A stretch of 64,000 nucleotides of DNA, taken from the NCBI RefSeq assembly GCF_000027125.1, contig NC_017626.1. One strand, 5' to 3'. Below are positions 1,567-64,000 of the stretch, in pieces. The position numbers were made by a program, and so were the translations under genes. The stretch's first letter is position 1. Every line of letters starts with the position of its first letter. Source of the DNA: Escherichia coli 042 (GTDB lineage Bacteria > Pseudomonadota > Gammaproteobacteria > Enterobacterales > Enterobacteriaceae). The notes below the pieces were generated by a model. That model did not search any database, was not told where the DNA came from, and was given only the letters and a program-made list of their open reading frames with translations.

Positions 1567-2805
1567 TTATTCCGCGTTTTCGTGAATATGTTTGCTGCTG
1601 GCGGGTAGTAAACCGTCGGCACGGAACATCGCTTTAATCCCACGAATCGCCTGACGAATACGGTCTCGGTTTTCAATCAGTGCAAAGCGAACATGCGTGT
1701 CGCCGTAGTCGCCAAAGCCGATCCCCGGAGAGACACAGACCTTCGCTTCGTTAAGCAGTTTCTTGGCAAATTCCAGTGAGCCCATGGCCGCATATGGTTC
1801 CGGGATTTTCGCCCAGACATACATCGAAGCCTTCGGCATTTCGACCATCCAGCCCGCTTCATGCAGCCCTTTAACCAGTACATCGCGGCGGCGTTTGTAC
1901 TGTTCGGCAATGTCGCACACGCACTGTTGATCGCCCTCCAGCGCCGCAATTGCCGCTACCTGCAACGGCGTAAAGGTGCCGTAATCGTGATAGCTTTTAA
2001 TACGTGCCAACGCGCTGACCAGCGTTTTGTTACCGACCATAAAGCCGATACGCCAGCCCGCCATGTTGTAGCTTTTCGACAGCGTAAAGAACTCTACCGC
2101 CACATCGCGTGCGCCCGGCACCTGCATGATTGACGGCGCTTTCCAGCCATCGTAGACGATATCGGCATAGGCCAGGTCATGGACCACCAGCACATCGTAG
2201 CGTTTCGCCAGCGCCACAACCTTCTCAAAGAATTCCAGTTCCACGCATTGCGCGGTTGGGTTCGACGGGAAGCCGAGGAGCATCATCTTCGGTTTCGGAT
2301 AACTTTCACGAATGGCGCGTTCCAGTTCGTTGAAGAAATCGACACCTTCCACCAGCGGCACTGAGCGTACCTGCGCCCCGGCAATCACCGCGCCGTAAAT
2401 ATGAATCGGGTAGCTTGGATTAGGCACCAGTACAGTGTCACCATGATCCAGCGTCGCCAGCATCAGATGCGCCAGTCCCTCTTTCGAACCAATGGTGACG
2501 ATAGCCTCTGATTCCGGGTCGATCTCAACGTCGTAGCGATCCTGATACCAGCGGGAAATGGCGCGACGTAACCGCGGAATGCCGCGTGACGTGGAGTAAC
2601 CATGCGTGTCCGGGCGCTGGGCCACCGTACATAATTTTTCGACGATGTGCGGCGGAGTCGCACCGTCCGGGTTACCCATACTGAAATCGATAATATCTTC
2701 GCCGCGCCGACGCGCAGCCATTTTCAGTTCAGCGGTAATATTAAAAACGTAGGGCGGGAGACGATCAATGCGCGTAAAGCGACGTTCAGGGCGAGTGTCA
2801 GCCAT
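1567..2805 (-). CDS. alaC: glutamate-pyruvate aminotransferase (PLP-dependent class I aminotransferase)
   Basis: 412-aa ORF; translation recognised as AlaC/YfdZ. Confidence 0.9.
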
Positions 2806-3181
2806 AATTTCCTCAGATTAACGTTAGCGCCCGGACCGTCCGAGCGACGCTGCCACGATGGTGGCTGTTTTGAAAATAGCCTGATTAATTTCTGTCTGTC
2901 CAGCGTTTTAGAACATTTTTATCAATGGCTTTAAATGAGGAACTCTGCTTTAAAAACAGGAAATTTATCTATGCTAACAAGAAAATTACCACTCAAATTA
3001 TTAACATTATAATTTCAATAAATTTACCAATCAGAAGTGCATTATCAAGAGATGCATTGCTAATACACCATTTATCTTTCAATCCCCTTTTAAAATTGTG
3101 GTTTTTCCTCAAAAATGGCCTGCTGGTCATCAGCCTTCAGGTTACCTATCATAGAGGTTTAATCCTTATTCAGAGTCACCC

Positions 3182-4879
3182 GTGCACGAAATATTCAACA
3201 TGCTGCTAGCGGTCTTCGATCGGGCAGCGTTAATGCTTATCTGCCTGTTCTTTCTCATCCGTATCCGCCTGTTTCGCGAACTGTTGCACAAGTCGGCGCA
3301 CTCCCCAAAAGAGCTGCTCGCTGTTACCGCCATTTTCTCGCTGTTCGCCCTGTTCAGCACCTGGTCCGGCGTTCCCGTAGAAGGCTCGCTGGTGAACGTA
3401 CGTATTATCGCGGTGATGTCAGGCGGGATTCTGTTTGGCCCGTGGGTAGGCATTATTACCGGCGTGATCGCAGGTATTCACCGTTATTTAATTGATATCG
3501 GCGGCGTGACGGCGATCCCCTGCTTTATCACCAGCATTCTGGCGGGTTGTATATCGGGCTGGATCAACCTGAAAATCCCTAAAGCACAGCGCTGGCGCGT
3601 CGGTATTCTCGGCGGCATGTTATGTGAAACGTTGACCATGATTCTGGTGATTGTCTGGGCACCAACTACCGCATTGGGGATCGATATCGTCTCTAAAATC
3701 GGGATTCCAATGATCCTCGGTAGCGTCTGTATCGGCTTTATTGTGCTGCTGGTGCAAAGCGTTGAGGGCGAAAAAGAGGCCAGCGCCGCGCGGCAGGCCA
3801 AGCTGGCGCTGGATATCGCCAACAAAACGCTACCGCTGTTTCGCCATGTCAATAGCGAGTCATTACGCAAAGTTTGTGAAATTATTCGCGATGATATTCA
3901 CGCCGATGCGGTGGCGATTACTAATACCGATCATGTGCTGGCCTATGTCGGCGTGGGCGAACACAACTATCAGAATGGCGATGACTTCATTAGCCCGACT
4001 ACCCGACAGGCGATGAATTACGGAAAAATCATCATTAAAAACAACGATGAAGCCCACCGCACACCAGAGATTCATTCCATGCTGGTGATCCCATTGTGGG
4101 AGAAAGGCGTTGTGACCGGAACACTGAAAATTTACTACTGCCACGCGCATCAGATCACTTCCTCATTACAGGAAATGGCGGTCGGTCTGTCGCAAATCAT
4201 CTCCACGCAACTGGAGGTTTCGCGTGCCGAGCAGTTACGTGAAATGGCAAATAAGGCAGAGCTTCGCGCTCTGCAAAGCAAAATTAATCCCCATTTTCTG
4301 TTTAACGCTCTGAACGCTATTTCATCGTCAATCCGTCTGAATCCAGATACCGCTCGCCAGCTGATCTTTAATCTGTCGCGTTATCTGCGCTATAACATTG
4401 AATTAAAAGACGATGAGCAAATCGATATCAAAAAAGAGCTGTATCAAATTAAAGACTATATTGCCATTGAGCAGGCCCGCTTTGGCGACAAGCTGACGGT
4501 TATCTATGATATTGATGAAGAGGTGAATTGCTGCATTCCCAGCCTGCTGATCCAGCCGTTGGTGGAGAATGCCATTGTCCACGGTATCCAGCCTTGCAAA
4601 GGTAAAGGCGTTGTCACCATCAGCGTTGCAGAGTGCGGCAATCGGGTACGCATTGCGGTGCGAGATACCGGGCACGGCATCGATCCAAAGGTGATTGAGC
4701 GGGTCGAAGCGAATGAAATGCCGGGCAATAAAATTGGTCTGCTGAATGTCCATCATCGCGTGAAGTTATTGTATGGCGAGGGGCTGCATATCCGCCGCCT
4801 GGAACCAGGAACGGAAATTGCGTTTTACATTCCTAACCAACGCACCCCAGTCGCCTCACAGACTACGTTATTGCTTTGA
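3182..4879 (+). CDS. ypdA: LytS-type sensor histidine kinase (5TM-Lyt, GAF, HisKA/HATPase)
   Basis: 565-aa ORF with GTG start; multi-TM N-terminus and C-terminal kinase motifs; recognised as YpdA. Confidence 0.9.
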
Positions 4880-4893
4880 GCCGGAGTGATATT

Positions 4894-5628
4894 GTGAAAG
4901 TCATCATTGTTGAAGACGAATTCCTGGCACAACAGGAACTGAGCTGGCTAATTAAAGAGCACAGCCAGATGGAGATTGTCGGCACCTTTGACGACGGTCT
5001 GGACGTGTTGAAGTTTTTGCAGCATAACCGCGTCGACGCCATTTTTCTGGATATCAATATTCCGTCGCTGGATGGTGTGTTGCTGGCGCAAAACATCAGC
5101 CAGTTCGCCCATAAACCATTTATTGTGTTTATCACCGCGTGGAAAGAACATGCGGTAGAAGCGTTTGAACTGGAGGCGTTTGACTACATTCTCAAACCGT
5201 ATCAGGAGTCACGCATTACCGGGATGCTGCAAAAACTGGAAGCGGCCTGGCAACAACAGCAGACCAGCAGCACGCCTGCCGCGACGGTAACGCGTGAGAA
5301 TGACACCATTAATCTGGTGAAAGATGAGCGAATAATCGTCACGCCAATTAACGATATCTATTACGCCGAAGCGCACGAGAAAATGACCTTTGTCTATACG
5401 CGGCGTGAATCCTACGTAATGCCGATGAACATTACCGAATTTTGCAGCAAACTGCCGCCGTCGCATTTTTTCCGCTGCCATCGCTCATTTTGTGTCAATC
5501 TGAACAAAATCCGCGAGATCGAACCGTGGTTTAATAACACCTACATTCTGCGGCTGAAAGATCTGGATTTTGAAGTGCCAGTCAGCCGCAGCAAAGTTAA
5601 AGAATTCCGCCAGTTAATGCATCTTTAA
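4894..5628 (+). CDS. ypdB: LytTR-family response regulator
   Basis: ORF track starts at TTG 4876; preferred start GTG 4894 (MKVIIVEDE...) with GGAG SD 7 nt upstream; receiver domain plus LytTR; sits just downstream of ypdA stop. Confidence 0.85.
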   Translation: MKVIIVEDEFLAQQELSWLIKEHSQMEIVGTFDDGLDVLKFLQHNRVDAIFLDINIPSLDGVLLAQNISQFAHKPFIVFITAWKEHAVEAFELEAFDYILKPYQESRITGMLQKLEAAWQQQQTSSTPAATVTRENDTINLVKDERIIVTPINDIYYAEAHEKMTFVYTRRESYVMPMNITEFCSKLPPSHFFRCHRSFCVNLNKIREIEPWFNNTYILRLKDLDFEVPVSRSKVKEFRQLMHL

Positions 5629-5640
5629 TCGGGAACTTTC

Positions 5641-6498
5641 ATGAAAGCACCAGGCTTGCCCGCCGATCAACAATTTTTCGCCGATCTGTTCAGCGGCCTG
5701 GTGCTTAACCCGCAACTACTGGGGCGCGTCTGGTTTGCCAGCCAGCCTGCCTCGTTACCGGTGGGCAGTTTATGTATTGATTTTCCCCGTCTGGATATCG
5801 TGCTGCGCGGCGAATACGGCAATCTGCTGGAAGCAAAGCAGCAACGTATGGTTGAAGGAGAAATGCTGTTTATTCCAGCGCGCGCGGCTAATTTACCGAT
5901 CAACAACAAACCGGTGATGCTGTTAAGCCTGGTGTTCGCACCGACCTGGCTTGGGTTATCGTTTTACGATAGCCGTACCACGTCGTTGTTGCATCCTGCT
6001 CGCCAGATCCAACTTCCCAGCCTGCAACGCGGCGAAGGTGAAGCAATGCTTACTGCCCTCACCCATCTTAGCCGTTCGCCGCTGGAGCAGAATATCATTC
6101 AGCCACTGGTGTTAAGTTTGCTGCATCTTTGCCGCAACGTGGTGAATATGCCGCCGGGCAATTCGCAGCCGCGCGGCGATTTTCTTTATCACAGCATTTG
6201 TAACTGGGTTCAGGATAATTATGCGCAGCCGCTCACCCGTGAGAGCGTGGCGCAGTTTTTTAATATCACGCCCAATCATCTGTCAAAACTGTTTGCGCAG
6301 CATGGAACAATGCGTTTTATCGAATATGTGCGTTGGGTGCGAATGGCGAAGGCGAGGATGATTTTGCAGAAATATCATCTGTCGATTCATGAAGTGGCGC
6401 AGCGTTGCGGCTTTCCGGACAGCGACTATTTTTGTCGCGTCTTCCGGCGTCAGTTTGGCCTGACGCCGGGAGAGTACAGCGCCCGTTTTCAGGGCTAA
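5641..6498 (+). CDS. ypdC: AraC-family transcriptional regulator
   Basis: 285-aa ORF; C-terminal AraC HTH; recognised as YpdC. Confidence 0.85.
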   Translation: MKAPGLPADQQFFADLFSGLVLNPQLLGRVWFASQPASLPVGSLCIDFPRLDIVLRGEYGNLLEAKQQRMVEGEMLFIPARAANLPINNKPVMLLSLVFAPTWLGLSFYDSRTTSLLHPARQIQLPSLQRGEGEAMLTALTHLSRSPLEQNIIQPLVLSLLHLCRNVVNMPPGNSQPRGDFLYHSICNWVQDNYAQPLTRESVAQFFNITPNHLSKLFAQHGTMRFIEYVRWVRMAKARMILQKYHLSIHEVAQRCGFPDSDYFCRVFRRQFGLTPGEYSARFQG

Positions 6499-6500
6499 CG

Positions 6501-8996
6501 TCAGAAGGTTAATTCCGTTTCCAGCAGCGTCAGGATGCTTTGCGCATCTTGCGCGGCGAACAGCGACTGGCGGAAGTTTTTATTCACCAGTTTACGCGCC
6601 AGCTGCGAGAAGACTTTCACATGATTCATCCCTTCGTTAGCGCCCAGTGTCAGCATGATCACCAGTTCGACTTCGCCCATTTCTGACTGCCAGTCAACCG
6701 GTTTCACCAGCCGGGCAATGCTGATACTGGAATGACGGATCCACTGAGATTTGGTATGCGGGATCGCTACGCCAAAACCAACGCCAGTAGTAACAATCTC
6801 TTCCCGCTGCCAGACATCTTCTTCCAGCTCAAACGGATGTTCAGTACGCCCGTTAACACCAAGGTTGCCGCACAGGAACTGGATCGCCTGCTCTTTATTA
6901 CTAAAGTCCTGATCAACAAAGATATTCTCCAGCGCCAGCAGTGGGCGAACGTCTTCTTCCGGCGTAAAGGCGGTGAGTAACGCTTCAATTTCCTGCGCAC
7001 TGCGGCATTCACATGCCTGACGCGCCAGTTCCCGACACGCCTCGCTATCCAGTTGACGAAGCTGGCTTTTCACCGCCGGAATGCGCGGGCTACTCATGCT
7101 TAACTCGTCCAGGCCCAGCCCAAGCAGTAGAGGCAGATAACGACTTTCACCGCCTAGTTCACCGCAAATACCTACCCATTTGCCGCGCTGATGCGCAGTG
7201 GTAACAATCTGCTGCAACATGCGCAGGAACGATGGCGTAATCGGGTTATACAGCGGCGATACGCGCGGGTTATTACGATCGACCGCATACAGATACTGGG
7301 TCATATCGTTAGAACCGATACTGAAGAAATCGACCTCATCGCAGAAGTGGTCGATGATGTAGCACACCGACGGCACTTCCACCATGATACCCAGCGTAAT
7401 CGTCTCTGCATGACGCAGACCATCGCGTTTAAGCTCAACGATCGCTTTTTGGATCTCACCCTTCACCCATAAGATCTGATCGAGGCTGTGAACCATCGGG
7501 ATCATCAGCTGGGCGTTGCCGAAACTGGCGGCACGCAAAATAGCCCGCAGTTGAGTGCGGAACAGGCCAGCAAATTCCGGGTAAATTCGTACCGCACGAT
7601 AGCCGAGGAACGGGTTCTCTTCCTGGGGAATGTTGAGGTAAGGAATGCTTTTATCGCCGCCGATGTCCATTGTGCGGAAGATAATCGGCTTGTCGCCCGC
7701 GGCCAGTAGCACCTGCTGGTAGGCTTCAAATTGCTCCTGCTCGTCCGGCGCGCTGTCGCGATCCATATAGAGCATTTCAGTACGGAACAGCCCAACACCT
7801 TCCGCGCCGTTGGCAAACGCGCCAGGCGCTTCCAGAGCAGTGCCAATATTCGCCGCAATATCAATGCGCTTGTTATCACGGGAATAGGCCAGCTGCGCGG
7901 CGGCCTGCGCCTGTTGTTGCTGACGTTTATCCGCCAGCGTCTGCGCAACCTGATAATAACCGCTCACCGCGTCATCAGGATTAATCGCCAGCACGCCGCA
8001 CTGGGCGTCAAGCACCGCCGGTTGCCCGGCATAACGGGCAATCGCATCCAGCGGCAGGCCGCTAAGAACCGGGATCGCCGAGGCGCGGGCCAGAATCAGT
8101 GTATGCGAGGTGCGCCCGGTTTTCTCCAGAATCATGCCCGCAAGATTTTTTAAATCGAGGCTTAAAAACTGGCTTGGGGTTAAATCTTCAGCCACCAGAA
8201 TGGTCGGTTTTTCAAGCACCAGATTGTTGCGCGGCTTCAGTTCCGGCCAGGTGATATGCAGCAACTGTTCGCTGATATCGCGAATGTCGCTAACACGCTC
8301 GCGCAGATAATCGCTGGCAGAAGCAGATAGTTTGGCGCAAACCTGCTCCATATTGCTGATGATCGCCGCCCCCAGCCCCTGATGCTGTTCTGCCATCAGG
8401 CGACGGATATTGCCCGCAAATTCATCATCCTGGATCAGCGACAAATGGGCGCTGAGGATAGTTTTGCTTTCTCCGTCACGCTCACGCAATTGCTGGTTCA
8501 GTTGCTCGGCAAGCGTTGCCAGGCTGTGCTCCAGCAGGGTGGAATCTTGCGCACTGGCGGGGATTGCCCGATAACTATCGAGGCTGTCGCTCTGTAACAG
8601 GGTCAGCGTACCCACGCCGACGCCGCTTGCCAGCACATTGCCGTACAGTAAATCAGGATTCAGACGGCTTAATGAACGCGGCAGCGGATGCGCCGTCAGT
8701 TTTGCCTGTGTTGGCTGGATGCTGTCGCTGTCGATAAAGCGCACCTGGATGTACTCTTCCAGCACGCGCCGCGCCTGCTCTTCATCGCTGCCGCTAATGT
8801 TCAGGCTGCAACTGTCATTAAATAAAGTGCCAGTGCCAATCAGCGCCAGCGAGCTTTTGGCATCTGCCTTTGCGTTCTGGCGATGGTTAATAAAAGTGAT
8901 TTCGCTTTGCCACTGGTTGCACTGTTCTTTAAGTTCCCACGCCGGACGAGCATGCAGACCGTTTGGCAAAGGACAGAGAAATTGAATCGTTAACAT
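6501..8996 (-). CDS. fryA: PTS multiphosphoryl transfer protein (HPr-like, Enzyme I-like and EIIA domains)
   Basis: 831-aa ORF; N-terminal HPr-like segment, central EI PEP-utilising domain, C-terminal EIIA-like region. Confidence 0.9.
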   Translation of the reverse strand: MLTIQFLCPLPNGLHARPAWELKEQCNQWQSEITFINHRQNAKADAKSSLALIGTGTLFNDSCSLNISGSDEEQARRVLEEYIQVRFIDSDSIQPTQAKLTAHPLPRSLSRLNPDLLYGNVLASGVGVGTLTLLQSDSLDSYRAIPASAQDSTLLEHSLATLAEQLNQQLRERDGESKTILSAHLSLIQDDEFAGNIRRLMAEQHQGLGAAIISNMEQVCAKLSASASDYLRERVSDIRDISEQLLHITWPELKPRNNLVLEKPTILVAEDLTPSQFLSLDLKNLAGMILEKTGRTSHTLILARASAIPVLSGLPLDAIARYAGQPAVLDAQCGVLAINPDDAVSGYYQVAQTLADKRQQQQAQAAAQLAYSRDNKRIDIAANIGTALEAPGAFANGAEGVGLFRTEMLYMDRDSAPDEQEQFEAYQQVLLAAGDKPIIFRTMDIGGDKSIPYLNIPQEENPFLGYRAVRIYPEFAGLFRTQLRAILRAASFGNAQLMIPMVHSLDQILWVKGEIQKAIVELKRDGLRHAETITLGIMVEVPSVCYIIDHFCDEVDFFSIGSNDMTQYLYAVDRNNPRVSPLYNPITPSFLRMLQQIVTTAHQRGKWVGICGELGGESRYLPLLLGLGLDELSMSSPRIPAVKSQLRQLDSEACRELARQACECRSAQEIEALLTAFTPEEDVRPLLALENIFVDQDFSNKEQAIQFLCGNLGVNGRTEHPFELEEDVWQREEIVTTGVGFGVAIPHTKSQWIRHSSISIARLVKPVDWQSEMGEVELVIMLTLGANEGMNHVKVFSQLARKLVNKNFRQSLFAAQDAQSILTLLETELTF

Positions 8997-9020
8997 AACC
9001 GCTCCGGGTTAATCAGGAGA

Positions 9021-10058
9021 TCATCTGAAATCCGTCAGTTGAACAACCGTCTCACGCGTAAGACGTTGAATAAGGGCAGATAAAAGCTGCTGCATCTGCA
9101 AAATGTCACGGCAATCGGCAATCGATGCGGCGCAATGTCCGTGGCGGGTCGCAGGCCCCATCACCACTGTGGGTACGCCAGTGCCGGTTAAGTGCACCGC
9201 CCCACCGTCCGTGCCACCGTTGCTGAACATATCTGCCTGTAACGGCACGCTAATTTCTGCCGCCACGGTTTCAATCCACGCGGTAAGTTTTGGCGGCGCA
9301 ATCAGCGATTTATCGCTTAACACCAGCATCGGGCCGTTACCAATCTGACGATGGTTAGCCGCGCCATAATCAAAGTTTTTCGCCCAGCAGGCGGTATCCA
9401 GCACAATCGCAACGTCCGGTGAAACCGCACGGGTAGCGGTTTGCCCGCCGCGTAAGCCGACCTCTTCGCTGGAGCTGGCCACCAACCACACTTCCGCAGG
9501 CAGTTCGGCATCGTGCAGCTCACGTAGTAAGGTAACTAACAGGTAGCAACCGAGGCGATCATCAAAGGCTTTCCCCATCACTCGCTGGTGAGGGAGAACC
9601 TGAAAAGTGGTATCAAAGGTGACGCGATCGCCTGGACGAATTCCCGCCTGCATCACTTCGTCATACGAGCGAGCGCCAATGTCCACGCGCATGGCGCTGA
9701 CGTCATTCCCCTGCCGGTCGCCGTCAAGCAGGCCAGGTATTTTGCACTCTTCACGGGTGGTGATCCGCACCGGCTGAAGCTGTCGGGCAGCCATGCGCAC
9801 GTTGCCAACTGGCAGCACATCAATCGCCCCTTCGCGGGAGATGCTGCGCACCATAAATCCCACTTCGTCCATATGCGCACAGATCATCACCTTCGGACCT
9901 GTCGATTCATTGAGGCGGATCAGCACCGATCCCAGCCCATCAAATCGCACTTCTTTTTGCAGGCGATCCGCTTCTTCCAGCAGGATCTGCCGTACTTCCT
10001 GTTCCGAGGAGGCGATCGCATCTGCCTCGCTCAACGCTTTTAGTAACGATAAATCCAT
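9021..10058 (-). CDS. ypdE: M42-family aminopeptidase
   Basis: 345-aa ORF recognised as YpdE. Confidence 0.85.
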
Positions 10059-11143
10059 TATGCCTCTCCCGTGAGCAACACTGTTTTCGGCATGGCGTAG
10101 AGCACTTCTGCGCCTTGCGGGGTGACCAGCACAACATCTTCGATGCGCACGCCCCCTTGCCCTGGCAAATAAATCCCCGGCTCCACGGTCAGTAACATGC
10201 CTGGCTGTAGCGTCGTGGTATCCCGCGGTGAAAAACGCGGCTCTTCATGGACTTCAATGCCGATAGCATGACCGGTGTTATGACCGAAATAGTCGCCATA
10301 ACCTGCTTCTGTAATGACCCGGCGCGCGGCATCGTCAACCTGCTGGCAGCGCACGCCGGGGCGAATCGCGGAGATTGCTGCGAGCTGTGCCTGCAGGACA
10401 ATCTGATAGACGTTAAACAGCGGGTGAGATTCGGCGCTCACCCCTTCGCCATTCACCAGCAAGGTGCGCGTCATATCAGAGCAGTACCCCTGATAGAGCG
10501 CACCAAAATCAAGAGTGACAAACTCGCCCGCTGCAACAATCTTGTCGCTGGCTTTACCGTGCGGCAGCGCGCCACGCCAGCCGCTGGCGACAATGGTGTC
10601 AAAAGAAGCTTTTTCTGCGCCCTGCTGGCGCATAAACCACTCCAGTTCAGCGGCTATCTCGCGCTCGCTCATCCCCGCCTGAATAAAGCGGCGAATATGC
10701 TCAGCACCGCGATCGGCAATCCCACAGGCGAGGCGGATTTTCTCCACCTCCTCTGGCGTTTTGATTTGCCGCAGCACATCCGGCGTGGCGCTAACCAGTT
10801 TCGCATTGAGTTCAGACTGCCAGCGGTGCGCGGTTTCCCAACTCACCTGCTGGCCCTCAAAACCGAGCGTTTGCAACTGCTCATCGGCAATGATTTGATT
10901 GACGATAGTGGTAAGCGTGTTCGTCGCGTCAAGCAAATGCAGCTGGTAGCCTTGCGTGCGGGCTTCTACATCCGCGTAATAGCGCGAATCCACCAGAATG
11001 TGCGCACTTTCACGGCTAATCACCACATAGCCTGATCCGGTGGAGATCCCCAGATGCGGCTGTTTGTTCTGCCGTGAGGAGAGAAGCACCGCATCCAGTT
11101 GTTGCGCCTTAAGCCAGTCGCGCAGCGAAGCGAGTAATGTCAT
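10058..11143 (-). CDS. ypdF: Xaa-Pro aminopeptidase (M24 family)
   Basis: 361-aa ORF recognised as YpdF; stop overlaps ypdE start by 1 nt. Confidence 0.85.
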
Positions 11144-11157
11144 CTGGATTTTCCTTC

Positions 11158-12405
11158 TTACAGGCTATCGATTAACAATTTGCCTTTACGGAACATCATC
11201 AGACGCAGGAACACCACCATCAGCGCAGTAATGACTGCCCCCAACGCGATCCCCGCCATGTAGACGCCGAGGTTAGTGACCAGCGGCCATGCCCAGATAG
11301 CGGACTCCGGGAACCATTGCACTGCGCCCAGCCAGACTGCAGCGGTTGAGCCGACAATCGCGCCGACCATATAGGACGGAATGGCGGTGATGGGGCTTTC
11401 CAGTGCAAACGGAATCGCACCTTCACTGATCCCCATAAACGCCAGGAACATGGCGGTTTTACCCTGCGGATAAAGCTGAGCACTGAACAGACGTTTGCCG
11501 GTTAAACGGCGGTCGATAATGGTCGCCAGACCCAGACCAATCGGCGGAATAACGATAGCGATAGAACGTGCGGTGACCGGTAATACGTGGTCCGTGGTAA
11601 AGCTGAAGGCAACGAAACCAGCTGCTTTGTTGATCGGGCCACCAAGGTCAATTGCTGTCGCCGCGGCGATCCCCATCGCGTACATCAGCGCGCCCTTCTC
11701 ACCTGCGGCAGTCAGCACGGTACGGATACCGCCGTTGATCCAGCCGCCAAAGGGGGTGATGACGTAGTACATCGCCAGCATGACAAAAATGGCGGAAAGA
11801 ATCGGTAGCAAAAATGTGGTTTTGAACGCTAACAGGAAATCCGGTAACTGGATTTTCTGGTTCATCCATTTCACAAGGTAACCAGCAACGATAGAAATAA
11901 TCAGGGCACCAATGAAGGTGGACGGCACCGGCGAAGAGGTCGCCCATTGCATAGTGCTGGGATCGAAGTTCAGCAGTTGCGTCGGCTGGGTAGACATCAA
12001 GCCGCCAATAAAACCAGCCGGGAACGCCAGTTTGCCGCCGATAGAGTTCGCCACAAAAGCGGCAAACATCGGAATGGCGAAACCAAACAACACGCCGCCG
12101 AAGGACTGCGACAGCCAGGCAAATTTCAGTAAGGAAAGGTCGAAACCGGAGAATTTCCCGCTATTAAGAGCATCCATGATGCCGATATCAGCAGGAATTT
12201 TAAGCCAGCTATAAGCAATCAGCTGGCTGAAAGCGAGGATCACACCGCCCATAATTAAGGTCGGCACCATGCGTGAAATCCCTGACATCACATGCTGCGG
12301 GAGTTCACCCCAGAAGCTGCTTTTAGAGGCCTGCGGATTCTTAACTGCCGCTGCCGCACCGGATGCGCCAGGCACAACGGTTGCACTGCGTTTTTTAATG
12401 GCCAT
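11158..12405 (-). CDS. fryC: PTS fructose-like EIIC component
   Basis: 415-aa polytopic membrane ORF recognised as FryC. Confidence 0.85.
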
Positions 12406-12426
12406 AACAATTATCCCTGTCGAATA

Positions 12427-12753
12427 TTACTGTTGTTCAGAGGCAATCATCTCTTCGATTTCTTTGATGATGCCCGCAGCGTTTTTAATTGCGTCCTGCA
12501 AAGTGATTTCATAAACGTCGCGTGATTCGAAACGTTCGTTATCTTCCGGGGTAACCGCCACGGAGTGGATGATGATGGTCGCTTCGGCGATATCCTGCGC
12601 GGTCAGGCGATTCTGGATGCCGTCCGCGCCCTGAGTTTCAATTTTCACTTCATAGCCTGCTTCCACCGCCGCTTCTTCCAGCGCCTGGGCAGCCATAAAG
12701 GTGTGAGCCAGACCCATCGGGCAGGCACATAAAGCAATCAGTTTCTTACTCAT
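12427..12753 (-). CDS. fryB: PTS fructose-like EIIB component
   Basis: ORF 12427..12804; start trimmed to ATG 12753 (MSKKLIALCACPMG...) giving 108 aa; Cys-containing EIIB motif. Confidence 0.8.
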   Translation of the reverse strand: MSKKLIALCACPMGLAHTFMAAQALEEAAVEAGYEVKIETQGADGIQNRLTAQDIAEATIIIHSVAVTPEDNERFESRDVYEITLQDAIKNAAGIIKEIEEMIASEQQ

Positions 12754-12935
12754 CGTTAATTCCTCGTTCAGTGATAGTTGACGAGTGAAATTATGAACGT
12801 GCAAAACAAATCGCCGTTACCAGACAAATAATGCATTTACTGGAGAATTAATCCCGCTGCACGGAAGTGTGACGCAGGTCGGCCTTGTGAGGGGACACAA
12901 AGGAAAATTGAATTAACTGTATGATTTAAAAGATT

Positions 12936-12957
12936 ATCGGGAGAGTTACCTCCCGAT
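12936..12957 (-). terminator. probable glk terminator hairpin
   Basis: perfect 8-bp inverted repeat atcgggag/ctcccgat 15 nt downstream of glk stop; U-tract is weak. Confidence 0.35.
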
Positions 12958-12971
12958 ATAACAGGAAGGAT

Positions 12972-13937
12972 TTACAGAATGTGACCTAAGGTCTGGCGTA
13001 AATGTGCACCGGAACCGAGAAGACCCGGATTGTCATGGACGATGAGATACACCGGAATATCATGGACATATTCTTTAAAGCGCCCTTTATCTTCAAATGC
13101 GGCACGGAAACCGGAGGCTTTGAAGAACTCAAGGAAGCGCGGCACGATACCACCCGCAATAAACACGCCGCCAAATGTCCCGAGATTGAGCGCCAGATTG
13201 CCGCCAAAACGGCCCATAATGACGCAAAACAGCGACAACGCGCGGCGGCAATCGGTGCAGCTGTCAGCCAGCGCACGTTCGGTAATATCTTTTGGCTTGA
13301 GATTTTCTGGCAGGCGGTTGTCGGCTTTCACAATCGCGCGATACAAATTCACCAGCCCAGGACCAGAAAGCACGCGCTCTGCCGAAACATGACCAATTTC
13401 TGCACGCAGTATTTCGAGGATAATGCCCTCTTCTTCACTATTCGGCGCAAAATCAACGTGACCGCCTTCGCCTGGCAAGCTTACCCAACGCTTATCTACA
13501 TGGACCAGATGCGCAACCCCAAGCCCCGTTCCGGCACCGTAAACCGCAATAGGCTTACCTTCGACCGGTTCTGCGCCACCAAACTGAATCAGATGCTCTT
13601 TTTTCAGCATCGGGATCGCCATCGATACAGCGGTAAAATCGTTAATAATTTCCAGATGGCTAAAACCGAGATTCTTTTTCATTTCGGCAATTGAGAACGC
13701 CCAGGTATGGTTGGTCATTGCCACCCAGTCACCGGTAATTGGGCAAGCGATGGCAATACAGCCGTCTTTCACCTCGACCTTATGTTCTTCAAGATAAACG
13801 CGAATGACCGCTTCGAGGCTGGGGTAATCAAGCCCTGAATAGGTCTTAGCCTGCGAGATTTCACCACTGGCAATATCACACAGAGCAAGACGTGCGTTGG
13901 TGCCGCCCACATCACCGACTAATGCATACTTTGTCAT
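12972..13937 (-). CDS. glk: glucokinase
   Basis: 321-aa ORF recognised as Glk. Confidence 0.92.
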
Positions 13938-15979: not shown

Positions 15980-17227
<1,248 letters not shown>

Positions 17228-63518: not shown

Positions 63519-64000
63519 TCATTCAACCAGTGTTTGTAAACTGCTTTCGCGGTTCACTTCTGTCTGACGCGGCACAGCTGCCACCAGCGCCAGTTCGATA
63601 ATTTCCTGCACGCTACAACCACGAGAGAGATCGTGCATCGGCGCGGCAAGTCCTTGTATCAATGGCCCGACGGCACGATATCCGCCGAGTCGTTGTGCGA
63701 TTTTGTAGCCAATATTTCCGGCTTCCAGCGACGGAAAAACCATCACATTGGCCTTGCCTTGTAGCGGGCTGGCAGGCGCTTTTTGCGCCGCCACTTCCGG
63801 CACGAAGGCGGCGTCAAACTGCAACTCGCCATCGACTACCAACTGCGGCGCGCGCTCACGGACGATTTCTGTCGCCTGCTGGACATTGGCAACGCAGGGG
63901 TGACGGGCGCTGCCGTTACTGGAAAACGACAACATCGCCACGCGCGGCTCTTCTCCGGTGATGGCGCGCCAGGTTTCGGCGCTGGCAAGCGCGATATCCG
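63519..64000 (-). CDS. eutD: phosphotransacetylase, 3-prime portion only (gene continues past the window edge)
   Basis: open frame from stop at 63519 to the window edge; C-terminal Pta-like sequence ([24 protein letters not shown]...). Confidence 0.85.

Follow-up and report, generated by a model that had tools for sequence, protein, structure and literature searches.

Organisation of the fry locus

The fry operon of Escherichia coli 042 joins the genes of a fructose-type phosphotransferase system (PTS) to those of two metallopeptidases. It is one of several orphan PTS operons of E. coli, and its function has stood open for ~25 years. We analysed it within a 64,000-nucleotide stretch of the chromosome (NC_017626.1), hereafter the window. 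The locus has long been annotated and named, its open function is already recognised, and structures of both peptidases, YpdE and YpdF, have been solved. What is new here is a redrawn cassette that takes in the regulator gene ypdC and leaves out ypdAB, a model of the promoter and operator, and a set of sister operons that would narrow the substrate class and tie fry to the lyase MalY. The genes of the cassette are as follows.

fryB, 12427-12753, minus strand, first gene of the operon, PTS enzyme IIB (EIIB) of the fructose type (Pfam PTS_IIB, 1.1e-19)
fryC, 11158-12405, minus strand, membrane permease, PTS enzyme IIC (EIIC; Pfam PTS_EIIC, PF02378)
ypdF, 10058-11143, minus strand, M24B Xaa-Pro-type metallopeptidase (Pfam Creatinase_N, PF01321, and Peptidase_M24, PF00557, 1e-73)
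ypdE, 9021-10058, minus strand, M42 (TET-type) aminopeptidase (Pfam Peptidase_M42, PF05343, 2.6e-85)
fryA, 6501-8996, minus strand, fused HPr-EI-EIIA phosphoryl-transfer protein (EI, enzyme I; EIIA, enzyme IIA; five Pfam domains)
ypdC, 5641-6498, plus strand, AraC-family regulator, convergent with fryA (Pfam HTH_18 and HTH_AraC)

The minus-strand genes are separated by 21 bp (fryB/fryC), 14 bp (fryC/ypdF) and 24 bp (ypdE/fryA), while ypdF and ypdE overlap by 1 nt (TAATG). RefSeq annotation and a mechanical listing of open reading frames (ORFs) are concordant on all five. A preliminary description of this DNA had proposed a five-gene minus-strand operon with tight or overlapping junctions, lying beside ypdAB and ypdC; coordinates, strand, Pfam domains and phospho-site motifs all bear out the operon, and RefSeq annotation agrees on its position. 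The same description spoke of a PTS fused to peptidases, which does not hold: the PTS and peptidase genes share an operon, and their proteins are separate. The operon has been listed as a single transcription unit, with mild induction (1.5-1.9-fold) upon Cpx activation. Positions 6001-13500 of the window show 100% identity to several E. coli chromosomes. Of 5426 complete E. coli genomes, 5424 contain the fry region, at 80% coverage or more in 5415, which is far beyond chance. The fry locus belongs to the E. coli core genome.

Inside ypdF lies an antisense ORF of 262 aa (10247-11035, plus strand), and similar antisense ORFs occur in other loci; it probably arises from codon usage and is no gene. 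The stop codons of ypdC and fryA are only 2 bp apart (6496-6503), and a similarly tight convergence, with 0-29 bp between the genes, is seen in other genera (15906/15907 in locus L002; 15948/15978 in L004). No terminator-like hairpin was found in the ypdC-fryA junction, so the two transcripts must overlap antisense at their 3' ends, and mutual interference could result.

PTS proteins and peptidases

FryA carries, in order, the Pfam domains PTS-HPr, PEP-utilisers_N, PEP-utilizers, PEP-utilizers_C and PTS_EIIA_2, and its phospho-site motifs (GLHARPA, GRTSHTLILARA, GICGELGG and GVAIPH) are intact. The EI domain, with GRTSHTLILARA and GICGELGG, satisfies TIGR01417 (503.4 against a cut-off of 341.7), and the C-terminal EIIA_2 domain, with GVAIPH, matches TIGR00848 (142.3 against 103.5). 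The protein falls below the equivalog models for PtsI (475 against 824) and PtsP (349 against 583) and has no GAF domain. In the RefSeq/PGAP annotation fryA bears the symbol ptsP; judged by these failed equivalog cut-offs and by the HPr-EI-EIIA architecture lacking GAF, that symbol is misleading.

FryB has the phosphorylatable cysteine motif ACPMGLAHT and matches TIGR00829 (92.2, cut-off 76.85). FryC barely attains the fructose-type model TIGR01427 (157.7, cut-off 157.55) and reaches the cut-off of none of the equivalog models for FrwC, MngA, FruA and FrvB. Its family is narrow, with 54 clusters at an E value of 1e-30 or below among 1.84 billion representatives. By profile matching, FryB, FryC and the EIIA domain of FryA are members of the fructose (Fru) PTS family, FryC marginally so. 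A 2017 paper assigned no function to fryA and stated the substrate of FryABC to be unknown; in the same work a 48-bp in-frame fryA deletion gave better growth after prolonged culture in lysogeny broth (LB).

The catalytic residues of both peptidases are intact. YpdF scores 818.8 against its equivalog NF007310 (cut-off 393), and a crystal structure exists (PDB 5CNX). Its five metal ligands, D212, D223, H292, E321 and E335, align with their counterparts in Pfu prolidase and show at least 97% conservation among 58 operon-linked homologs. YpdE scores 680 against NF007421 (cut-off 412) and likewise has a crystal structure (PDB 1YLO), with the metal-binding and catalytic residues H62, D166, E198, E199, D221 and H308 at least 97% conserved among 46 operon-linked homologs. 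YpdE is reportedly a broad aminopeptidase and YpdF specific for Xaa-Pro bonds. A 2012 paper credits E. coli with three M42 proteins and attributes the characterisation of YpdE activity to Zheng et al. (2005). A ypdE deletion mutant of strain UTI89 was outcompeted in the mouse bladder (competitive index 0.297).

Selection on the cassette

Ratios of nonsynonymous to synonymous substitution rates (dN/dS) were obtained by comparing the E. coli window with E. whittamii, Citrobacter, Salmonella, Superficieibacter and Enterobacter, and glk served as a comparison gene.

fryB, dN/dS 0.015-0.04
fryC, dN/dS 0.02-0.07
ypdE, dN/dS 0.02-0.15
fryA, dN/dS 0.04-0.13
ypdC, dN/dS 0.06-0.18
ypdF, dN/dS 0.13-0.17
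glk, dN/dS 0.02-0.03

All six cassette genes are under purifying selection (0.015-0.18), and the tightest constraint, on a par with that on glk, is on the transport parts FryB and FryC. The fry operon is not in decay; it is intact and selectively maintained. The preliminary description had called it cryptic and without a defined substrate. A literature search on the fry genes and their synonyms agreed with the second point, as no assignment of a Fry substrate was found; the word cryptic should not be taken to mean decay, given the purifying selection and the bladder phenotype of the ypdE deletion.

The fastest-evolving gene of the cassette is ypdF, with 70-76% amino acid identity in the same genome pairs in which FryB and FryC show 88-96% (orthologs in L011, L018, L023, L025 and L029). 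Apparent disruptions of ypdF or ypdE in six loci proved to be an artefact of ORF picking, as tblastn and translation gave intact genes.

ypdC, not ypdAB, belongs with fry

One genome per species was scanned with an alignment of the FryC family, which gave 80 loci, and a census of their genes was taken by tblastn. FryC orthologs at 71% and 76% identity lie in the same fryB-fryC-M24-M42-fryA order with a convergent AraC-type gene abutting fryA, in flanks wholly unlike those of E. coli. The abutting genes encode full-length YpdC orthologs (61% and 47% identity), and ypdAB is lacking from these genomes. Across the Enterobacterales loci with an EI fusion, ypdC adjoins fry in 29 of 31, whatever the chromosomal setting. 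The pair on its other side in E. coli is far less constant.

ypdA, 3182-4879, plus strand, with YpdB a LytS/LytTR-type two-component system (Pfam)
ypdB, 4894-5628, plus strand, with YpdA a LytS/LytTR-type two-component system (Pfam)

These two genes adjoin fry in 11 of the 31 loci, as against 29 for ypdC, and thus ypdC belongs to fry and ypdAB does not. The fry operon and convergent ypdC together form an evolutionary unit of six genes, found in several unrelated chromosomal settings. Proximity to ypdAB is confined to Escherichia, Citrobacter and Pseudocitrobacter and is a lineage-specific accident. A functional link between fry and the pyruvate-sensing ypdAB system was rejected on these same counts.

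In E. coli, ypdC begins 12 bp after ypdB (5628-5641) and looks co-transcribed with ypdAB; in most other genera it is solitary beside fry. The E. coli arrangement may have placed the fry regulator under control of the ypdAB promoter. The scan also returned a typical Enterobacteriaceae fry-ypdC cassette (FryC 75% identical) from an assembly titled 'Chryseobacterium sp. 18061' (L034, CACSKA010000002.1), which groups with the Pluralibacter locus L037 in the EIIC tree; this assembly is probably mislabelled or contaminated.

A predicted operator and promoter, conserved upstream of fryB

For phylogenetic footprinting, the regions upstream of fryB were aligned from 16 loci in differing chromosomal settings. 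Conservation is confined to four elements: a CRP-like GA-N6-TCACA, a direct repeat, a CATAAT hexamer and the ribosome-binding site. Positions relative to transcription are given from a start site placed 7 nt past the -10 hexamer.

Predicted -10 hexamer CATAAT of the fryB promoter, 12790-12795, minus strand, with no good -35 hexamer
Predicted YpdC operator, 12817-12846, minus strand, direct repeat of TCTCCAGTAA (12846-12837) and TGTCTGGTAA (12826-12817), 20 bp apart, at ~-63 to -34
CRP-like site GCCGA-N6-TCACA, 12868-12883, minus strand, centred at ~-92.5 from the predicted start
Terminator-like hairpin, 12935-12958, minus strand, a ten-pair stem and then a T-rich tail, just 3' of the glk stop (12972), separating glk from the fry promoter region
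glk, 12972-13937, minus strand, neighbour of the fry operon (RefSeq annotation)

The composite repeat pattern has a single match in the window, where 0.00 are expected by chance. Each of the 36 enterobacterial loci has it just once, in the same position and on the same strand, and none of the 44 other loci has it at that position. The hexamer reads CATAAT in 34 sequences and CATACT in 2, and in 36 of 37 its first base lies 20-21 nt past the operator. In 35 of 37 a GA-N6-T(C/G)(A/G)CA skeleton is likewise fixed in place, at offset -38 relative to the operator. A generic sigma-70 scan did not find the fryB promoter because its -35 is poor.

The preliminary description had put forward YpdC as a local regulator, a proposal strengthened both by its adjacency to fry and by this operator, which abuts the -35 region in all 36 enterobacterial loci. 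With its HTH_18/HTH_AraC domains and a conserved direct repeat at a position suited to an AraC/XylS-type activator, YpdC is very probably the local regulator of fry and would bind the repeat; a published chromatin immunoprecipitation-exonuclease (ChIP-exo) survey gave no YpdC peaks in the conditions tested. The upstream site is putatively assigned to CRP by its likeness to the consensus TGTGA-N6-TCACA. Transcription of fry is thus predicted to require YpdC on the direct repeat together with the CRP-like site. An activator-dependent promoter with no -35 would explain both the apparent silence of fry in the laboratory and the promoter missed by the scan.

No copy of the operator was found upstream of ypdC, where it would have been a sign of autoregulation. 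A third exact match to the half-site TNTCYRGTAA lies at 63916-63925, far from fry; ~0.85 are expected by chance, and this match is probably meaningless.

Sister operons and their partner enzymes

The fry-type order, EIIB and EIIC followed by M24 plus M42 or M20, is seen in the E. coli operon and in 63 of the 80 Fry-like EIIC loci; these are coupled to peptidases, and the other 17 to a glycosidase. In the latter group the genes for EIIA, EIIB and EIIC precede one for a GH38 alpha-mannosidase, and no other gene is conserved. The peptidase-coupled loci comprise several types. In 31 Enterobacterales loci the EI-HPr-EIIA fusion is present, and the census found that fusion in Enterobacterales loci only. 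A further 14-15 Clostridial loci (Hungatella, Enterocloster, Breznakia, Caproiciproducens, Lachnospiraceae, Ruminococcaceae) encode a PRD regulator, EIIA, EIIB, EIIC, M24, M42 and a pyridoxal phosphate (PLP) enzyme, the large upstream gene being an HTH-Mga-PRD-EIIA regulator. Nine loci, C. difficile, Pelosinus and Lucifera among them, combine M24 with a PLP enzyme, and five of these have an M20 peptidase as well. Three Rahnella loci have M24 and no PLP enzyme, with an M20 peptidase too in two of the three.

The Rahnella variant (L086, L087, L089; FryC 53% identical) has the order Sapep-type M20, FryB, FryC, M24 with a LacI-family regulator upstream, and no EIIA, M42, EI fusion or lyase was found near these loci.

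A MalY/PatB-type beta-lyase is carried by 25 of the 63 peptidase-coupled loci. Set against the cut-off of 340 for the PatB C-S lyase subfamily, PLP enzymes from these operons score 348.7, 357.0, 342.7 and 339.8, and the M20 partners are Sapep-family dipeptidases. One metagenomic sister operon (L006) was informative in advance. Its EIIABC is fused and 54% identical to FryC, and its neighbours are RidA, an alanine dehydrogenase-like enzyme, an RpiR regulator, M24, M20 and a PLP enzyme annotated as an aminotransferase. Because RidA sits in the operon, this last enzyme was predicted beforehand to be a beta-eliminating lyase; by NCBIfam it falls into the PatB family, scoring 307 bits where the runner-up family scores 93.

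The EIIC tree, built by neighbour joining, has the Clostridial clade with M24, M42 and lyase as sister to that of E. coli, and the GH38-coupled and peptidase/lyase-coupled lineages interleave. Searches around the Clostridial and GH38 operons gave no conserved sugar-catabolic genes or other conserved neighbours, the flanks being unrelated, so that the partner enzyme sets are self-contained. As the slot after the transporter is held either by GH38 or by a peptidase (plus lyase) set, both sets can be argued to free a sugar phosphate from its aglycone, and the alternation argues that the aglycone of the fry type is an amino acid or peptide.

A possible link to MalY

Among the Enterobacterales, a single fry locus includes a lyase. 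In this metagenome-assembled genome (L044) the gene lies at 16030-17202, 57 bp downstream of fryA, as the last gene of the fry operon, and its product is at the level of a MalY ortholog (596 bits to PDB 1D2F, about two-thirds identical to E. coli MalY over 387 residues). Neither lyase nor glycosidase is found in the other 30 of the 31 Enterobacterales loci. The lyase of the Clostridial operons likewise finds its best match in E. coli MalY, ahead of B. subtilis PatB. A tblastn search of the whole window with the MalY-like protein of L044 returned nothing at E < 1, and the window thus has no MalY/PatB gene. An independent case comes from Lactobacillus sakei LT-13, for which a published cluster with no assigned role combines MalY and two aminopeptidases with a Lac-family PTS and PRD regulators. 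Together, the sequence comparisons suggest that MalY and PTS operons of the Fry type are functionally linked.

The L044 fry operon is preceded (1889-8228) by further genes of amidohydrolase type, encoding an ectoine-hydrolase-like M24 protein, a Zn hydrolase of the carbamoylase family, a dehydrogenase of the Ldh_2 family and an M20 peptidase, possibly part of a wider island for the catabolism of modified amino acids.

A model of conjugate uptake and trimming

On balance, we lean towards the fry locus being an intact, selectively maintained six-gene catabolic cassette that would import a sugar, probably a hexose, linked covalently to an amino acid or a short proline-containing peptide. Phosphoenolpyruvate (PEP) would phosphorylate FryA, whose EI, HPr and EIIA domains would relay the phosphate to Cys11 of FryB, and FryC would import the sugar-amino acid or sugar-peptide conjugate with phosphorylation of its sugar moiety. 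In the cytoplasm YpdE would trim N-terminal residues, and YpdF would cut the Xaa-Pro bonds refractory to YpdE. In the relatives, a PLP-dependent beta-lyase of the MalY/PatB type would break the remaining bond between sugar phosphate and Cys or Ser by beta-elimination, with RidA, where present, handling the aminoacrylate. In E. coli the lyase step would occur in trans, with MalY as the candidate, or the pathway would end at the trimmed product. Since no version of the cassette includes a dedicated sugar-catabolic enzyme, the released sugar phosphate should be one able to feed straight into central metabolism, with a hint of mannose from the GH38 sister systems. We infer the class of substrate, the order of these steps, the binding of YpdC and CRP and the role of MalY from comparative analysis.

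A more specific form of this model, which we advance only tentatively, has a hexose O- or S-linked to Ser, Thr or Cys in a short proline-containing peptide, imported by the PTS, trimmed by M42/M20 and M24 enzymes and released by MalY-type beta-elimination. Fragments of mucin, yeast mannoprotein or plant extensin are possible sources.

Import of a glycosylated or otherwise modified peptide, or of an amino-sugar conjugate, had been suggested in the preliminary description; the sister operons with a MalY/PatB lyase, a Sapep-type dipeptidase or a GH38 swap favour it, while its account of E. coli is weakened by an operon that has no sugar-releasing enzyme. Several points weigh against conjugate uptake. 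Neither the E. coli operon nor 30 of the 31 enterobacterial versions has a lyase or glycosidase, which leaves sugar release unexplained. The EIIC tree is a simple neighbour-joining tree without support values, and the YpdC ChIP-exo result stands on the same side. YpdE, by the account in the 2012 paper, is a characterised aminopeptidase, and it and YpdF could simply be general peptidases. Aminopeptidases require a free N-terminus, which excludes many glycoconjugates. Finally, we know of no characterised PTS that carries a peptide conjugate.

If true, the conjugate model would introduce a new kind of PTS cargo, would explain the repeated presence of M42 'aminopeptidases' in PTS operons, would point to a natural substrate for MalY-type beta-lyases and might account for the bladder-colonisation defect of the ypdE mutant of uropathogenic E. 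coli. Its Ser/Thr/Cys glycopeptide form, if true, would be a widespread and so far undescribed catabolic route, giving a physiological role to E. coli MalY and to the three PTS-linked M42 proteins. What the present work offers for experiment is a defined operator-promoter region, YpdC as candidate regulator, MalY as candidate lyase acting in trans, and the seven-gene operon of Clostridia, which would suit reconstitution.

Alternative explanations

In place of a glycopeptide linked through Ser or Cys, the cargo might be an aminoacyl-amino sugar or a glycated (Amadori-type) peptide. In one variant, peptides with epsilon-fructosyl-lysine would be phosphorylated on the fructosyl group, trimmed by YpdE and YpdF to fructoselysine-6-phosphate and finished by the separate frl deglycase; in another, the aminopeptidases themselves would cleave the amide of an aminoacyl-NH-sugar. 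Membership of FryB, FryC and the EIIA domain in the fructose-type PTS family fits this proposal, as does the lack of a lyase or glycosidase in E. coli and in 30 of the 31 enterobacterial operons, which means that the peptidases or an enzyme encoded elsewhere must complete the pathway. Aminopeptidases are able to hydrolyse aminoacyl-amides. It is not obvious, however, what the beta-lyase carried by 25 of the 63 peptidase-coupled loci would do with lysine- or amide-linked sugars, and a SIS-type deglycase was seen in none of the 80 loci. We regard the proposal, with both its variants, as unlikely.

Slightly less probable still is that the peptidases do not act on PTS cargo at all. The Fry PTS would then import or sense an ordinary sugar or polyol, as a nutritional-coupling or regulatory PTS, and YpdE and YpdF would be general peptidases, co-expressed with it or regulated through FryA phosphorylation. 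The complete private phosphorelay in FryA is as in regulatory PTS branches, the in-frame fryA deletion of the 2017 study alters fitness in LB without a known substrate, and YpdE is a characterised aminopeptidase (Zheng et al. 2005, as cited in the 2012 paper). Against these stand the same M24 and M42 pair, in the same order after FryBC, in Enterobacterales and Clostridia despite differing regulators and EI/EIIA arrangements; the glycoside-cleaving GH38 enzyme that holds the position after EIIC in sister lineages, from which a gene at that place can be argued to process the import; the strongest constraint of all on FryB and FryC; and the independent Lac-family PTS of L. sakei with its two aminopeptidases and MalY.

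That fry is a functionless evolutionary relic in E. coli, silent in all natural conditions, is highly improbable: the literature search gave no inducing condition or substrate, YpdC was without ChIP-exo binding, the fryB promoter has no recognisable -35 hexamer and the lyase of the relatives is missing from the window, but the locus is kept in 5415 of 5426 genomes with dN/dS of 0.015-0.18 across genera, all catalytic residues intact and the regulatory site conserved, and ypdE matters in the mouse bladder and mild Cpx-linked induction has been reported.

Comparison with known systems

The predicted fry promoter resembles araBAD and rhaBAD, in which an AraC-family activator sits on direct repeats overlapping the -35 region with CRP upstream. 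In fry, too, two 10-bp direct repeats 20 bp apart end beside the -35, a weak -35 accompanies a good -10, and a CRP-like site lies near -92.5. The systems differ in that the YpdC and CRP sites and the start in fry are predicted from sequence, and in the empty YpdC ChIP-exo result under laboratory conditions.

As orphan PTS systems coupled to an M42 homolog, the frvABXR and sgc operons of E. coli are also close in outline, through FrvX and SgcX, which we take to be members of these operons; frv and sgc differ from fry in having no M24 partner, no EI fusion and other regulators. E. coli malXY and the L. sakei malY cluster share with the fry relatives a MalY-type lyase encoded with PTS components, to which the L. 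sakei cluster adds a pair of aminopeptidases and PRD regulators. The PTS families are distinct, with MalX in the Glc family and the L. sakei system in the Lac family, and the E. coli fry window is without malY.

In the MngA/MngB-type and GH38-coupled Fry-like operons, a transporter imports a sugar conjugate (2-O-alpha-mannosyl-D-glycerate for MngA/MngB) and a single downstream enzyme frees the sugar phosphate. These systems share with fry the fructose-family EIIA, EIIB and EIIC, and the GH38-coupled EIICs are 50-62% identical to FryC and interleaved with the peptidase-coupled ones in the tree. At 102 bits, FryC is far below the MngA equivalog cut-off of 763, and fry has two metallopeptidases after EIIC in place of the glycosidase, no glycosidase gene having been found in the E. 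coli fry locus (5641-12972) and GH38 being limited to the sister loci.

The nearest relatives of FryB and FryC are encoded in the Clostridial cassette (L048, L050-L062, L088). It has a PRD-type regulator where fry has YpdC, a separate EIIA served by general EI and HPr where fry has the FryA fusion, and its beta-lyase in cis. It shares with fry the B-C-M24-M42 order, identities of 57-67% for FryC, 70-80% for FryB and 40-48% for YpdF and YpdE, and the sister position of its clade in the EIIC tree.

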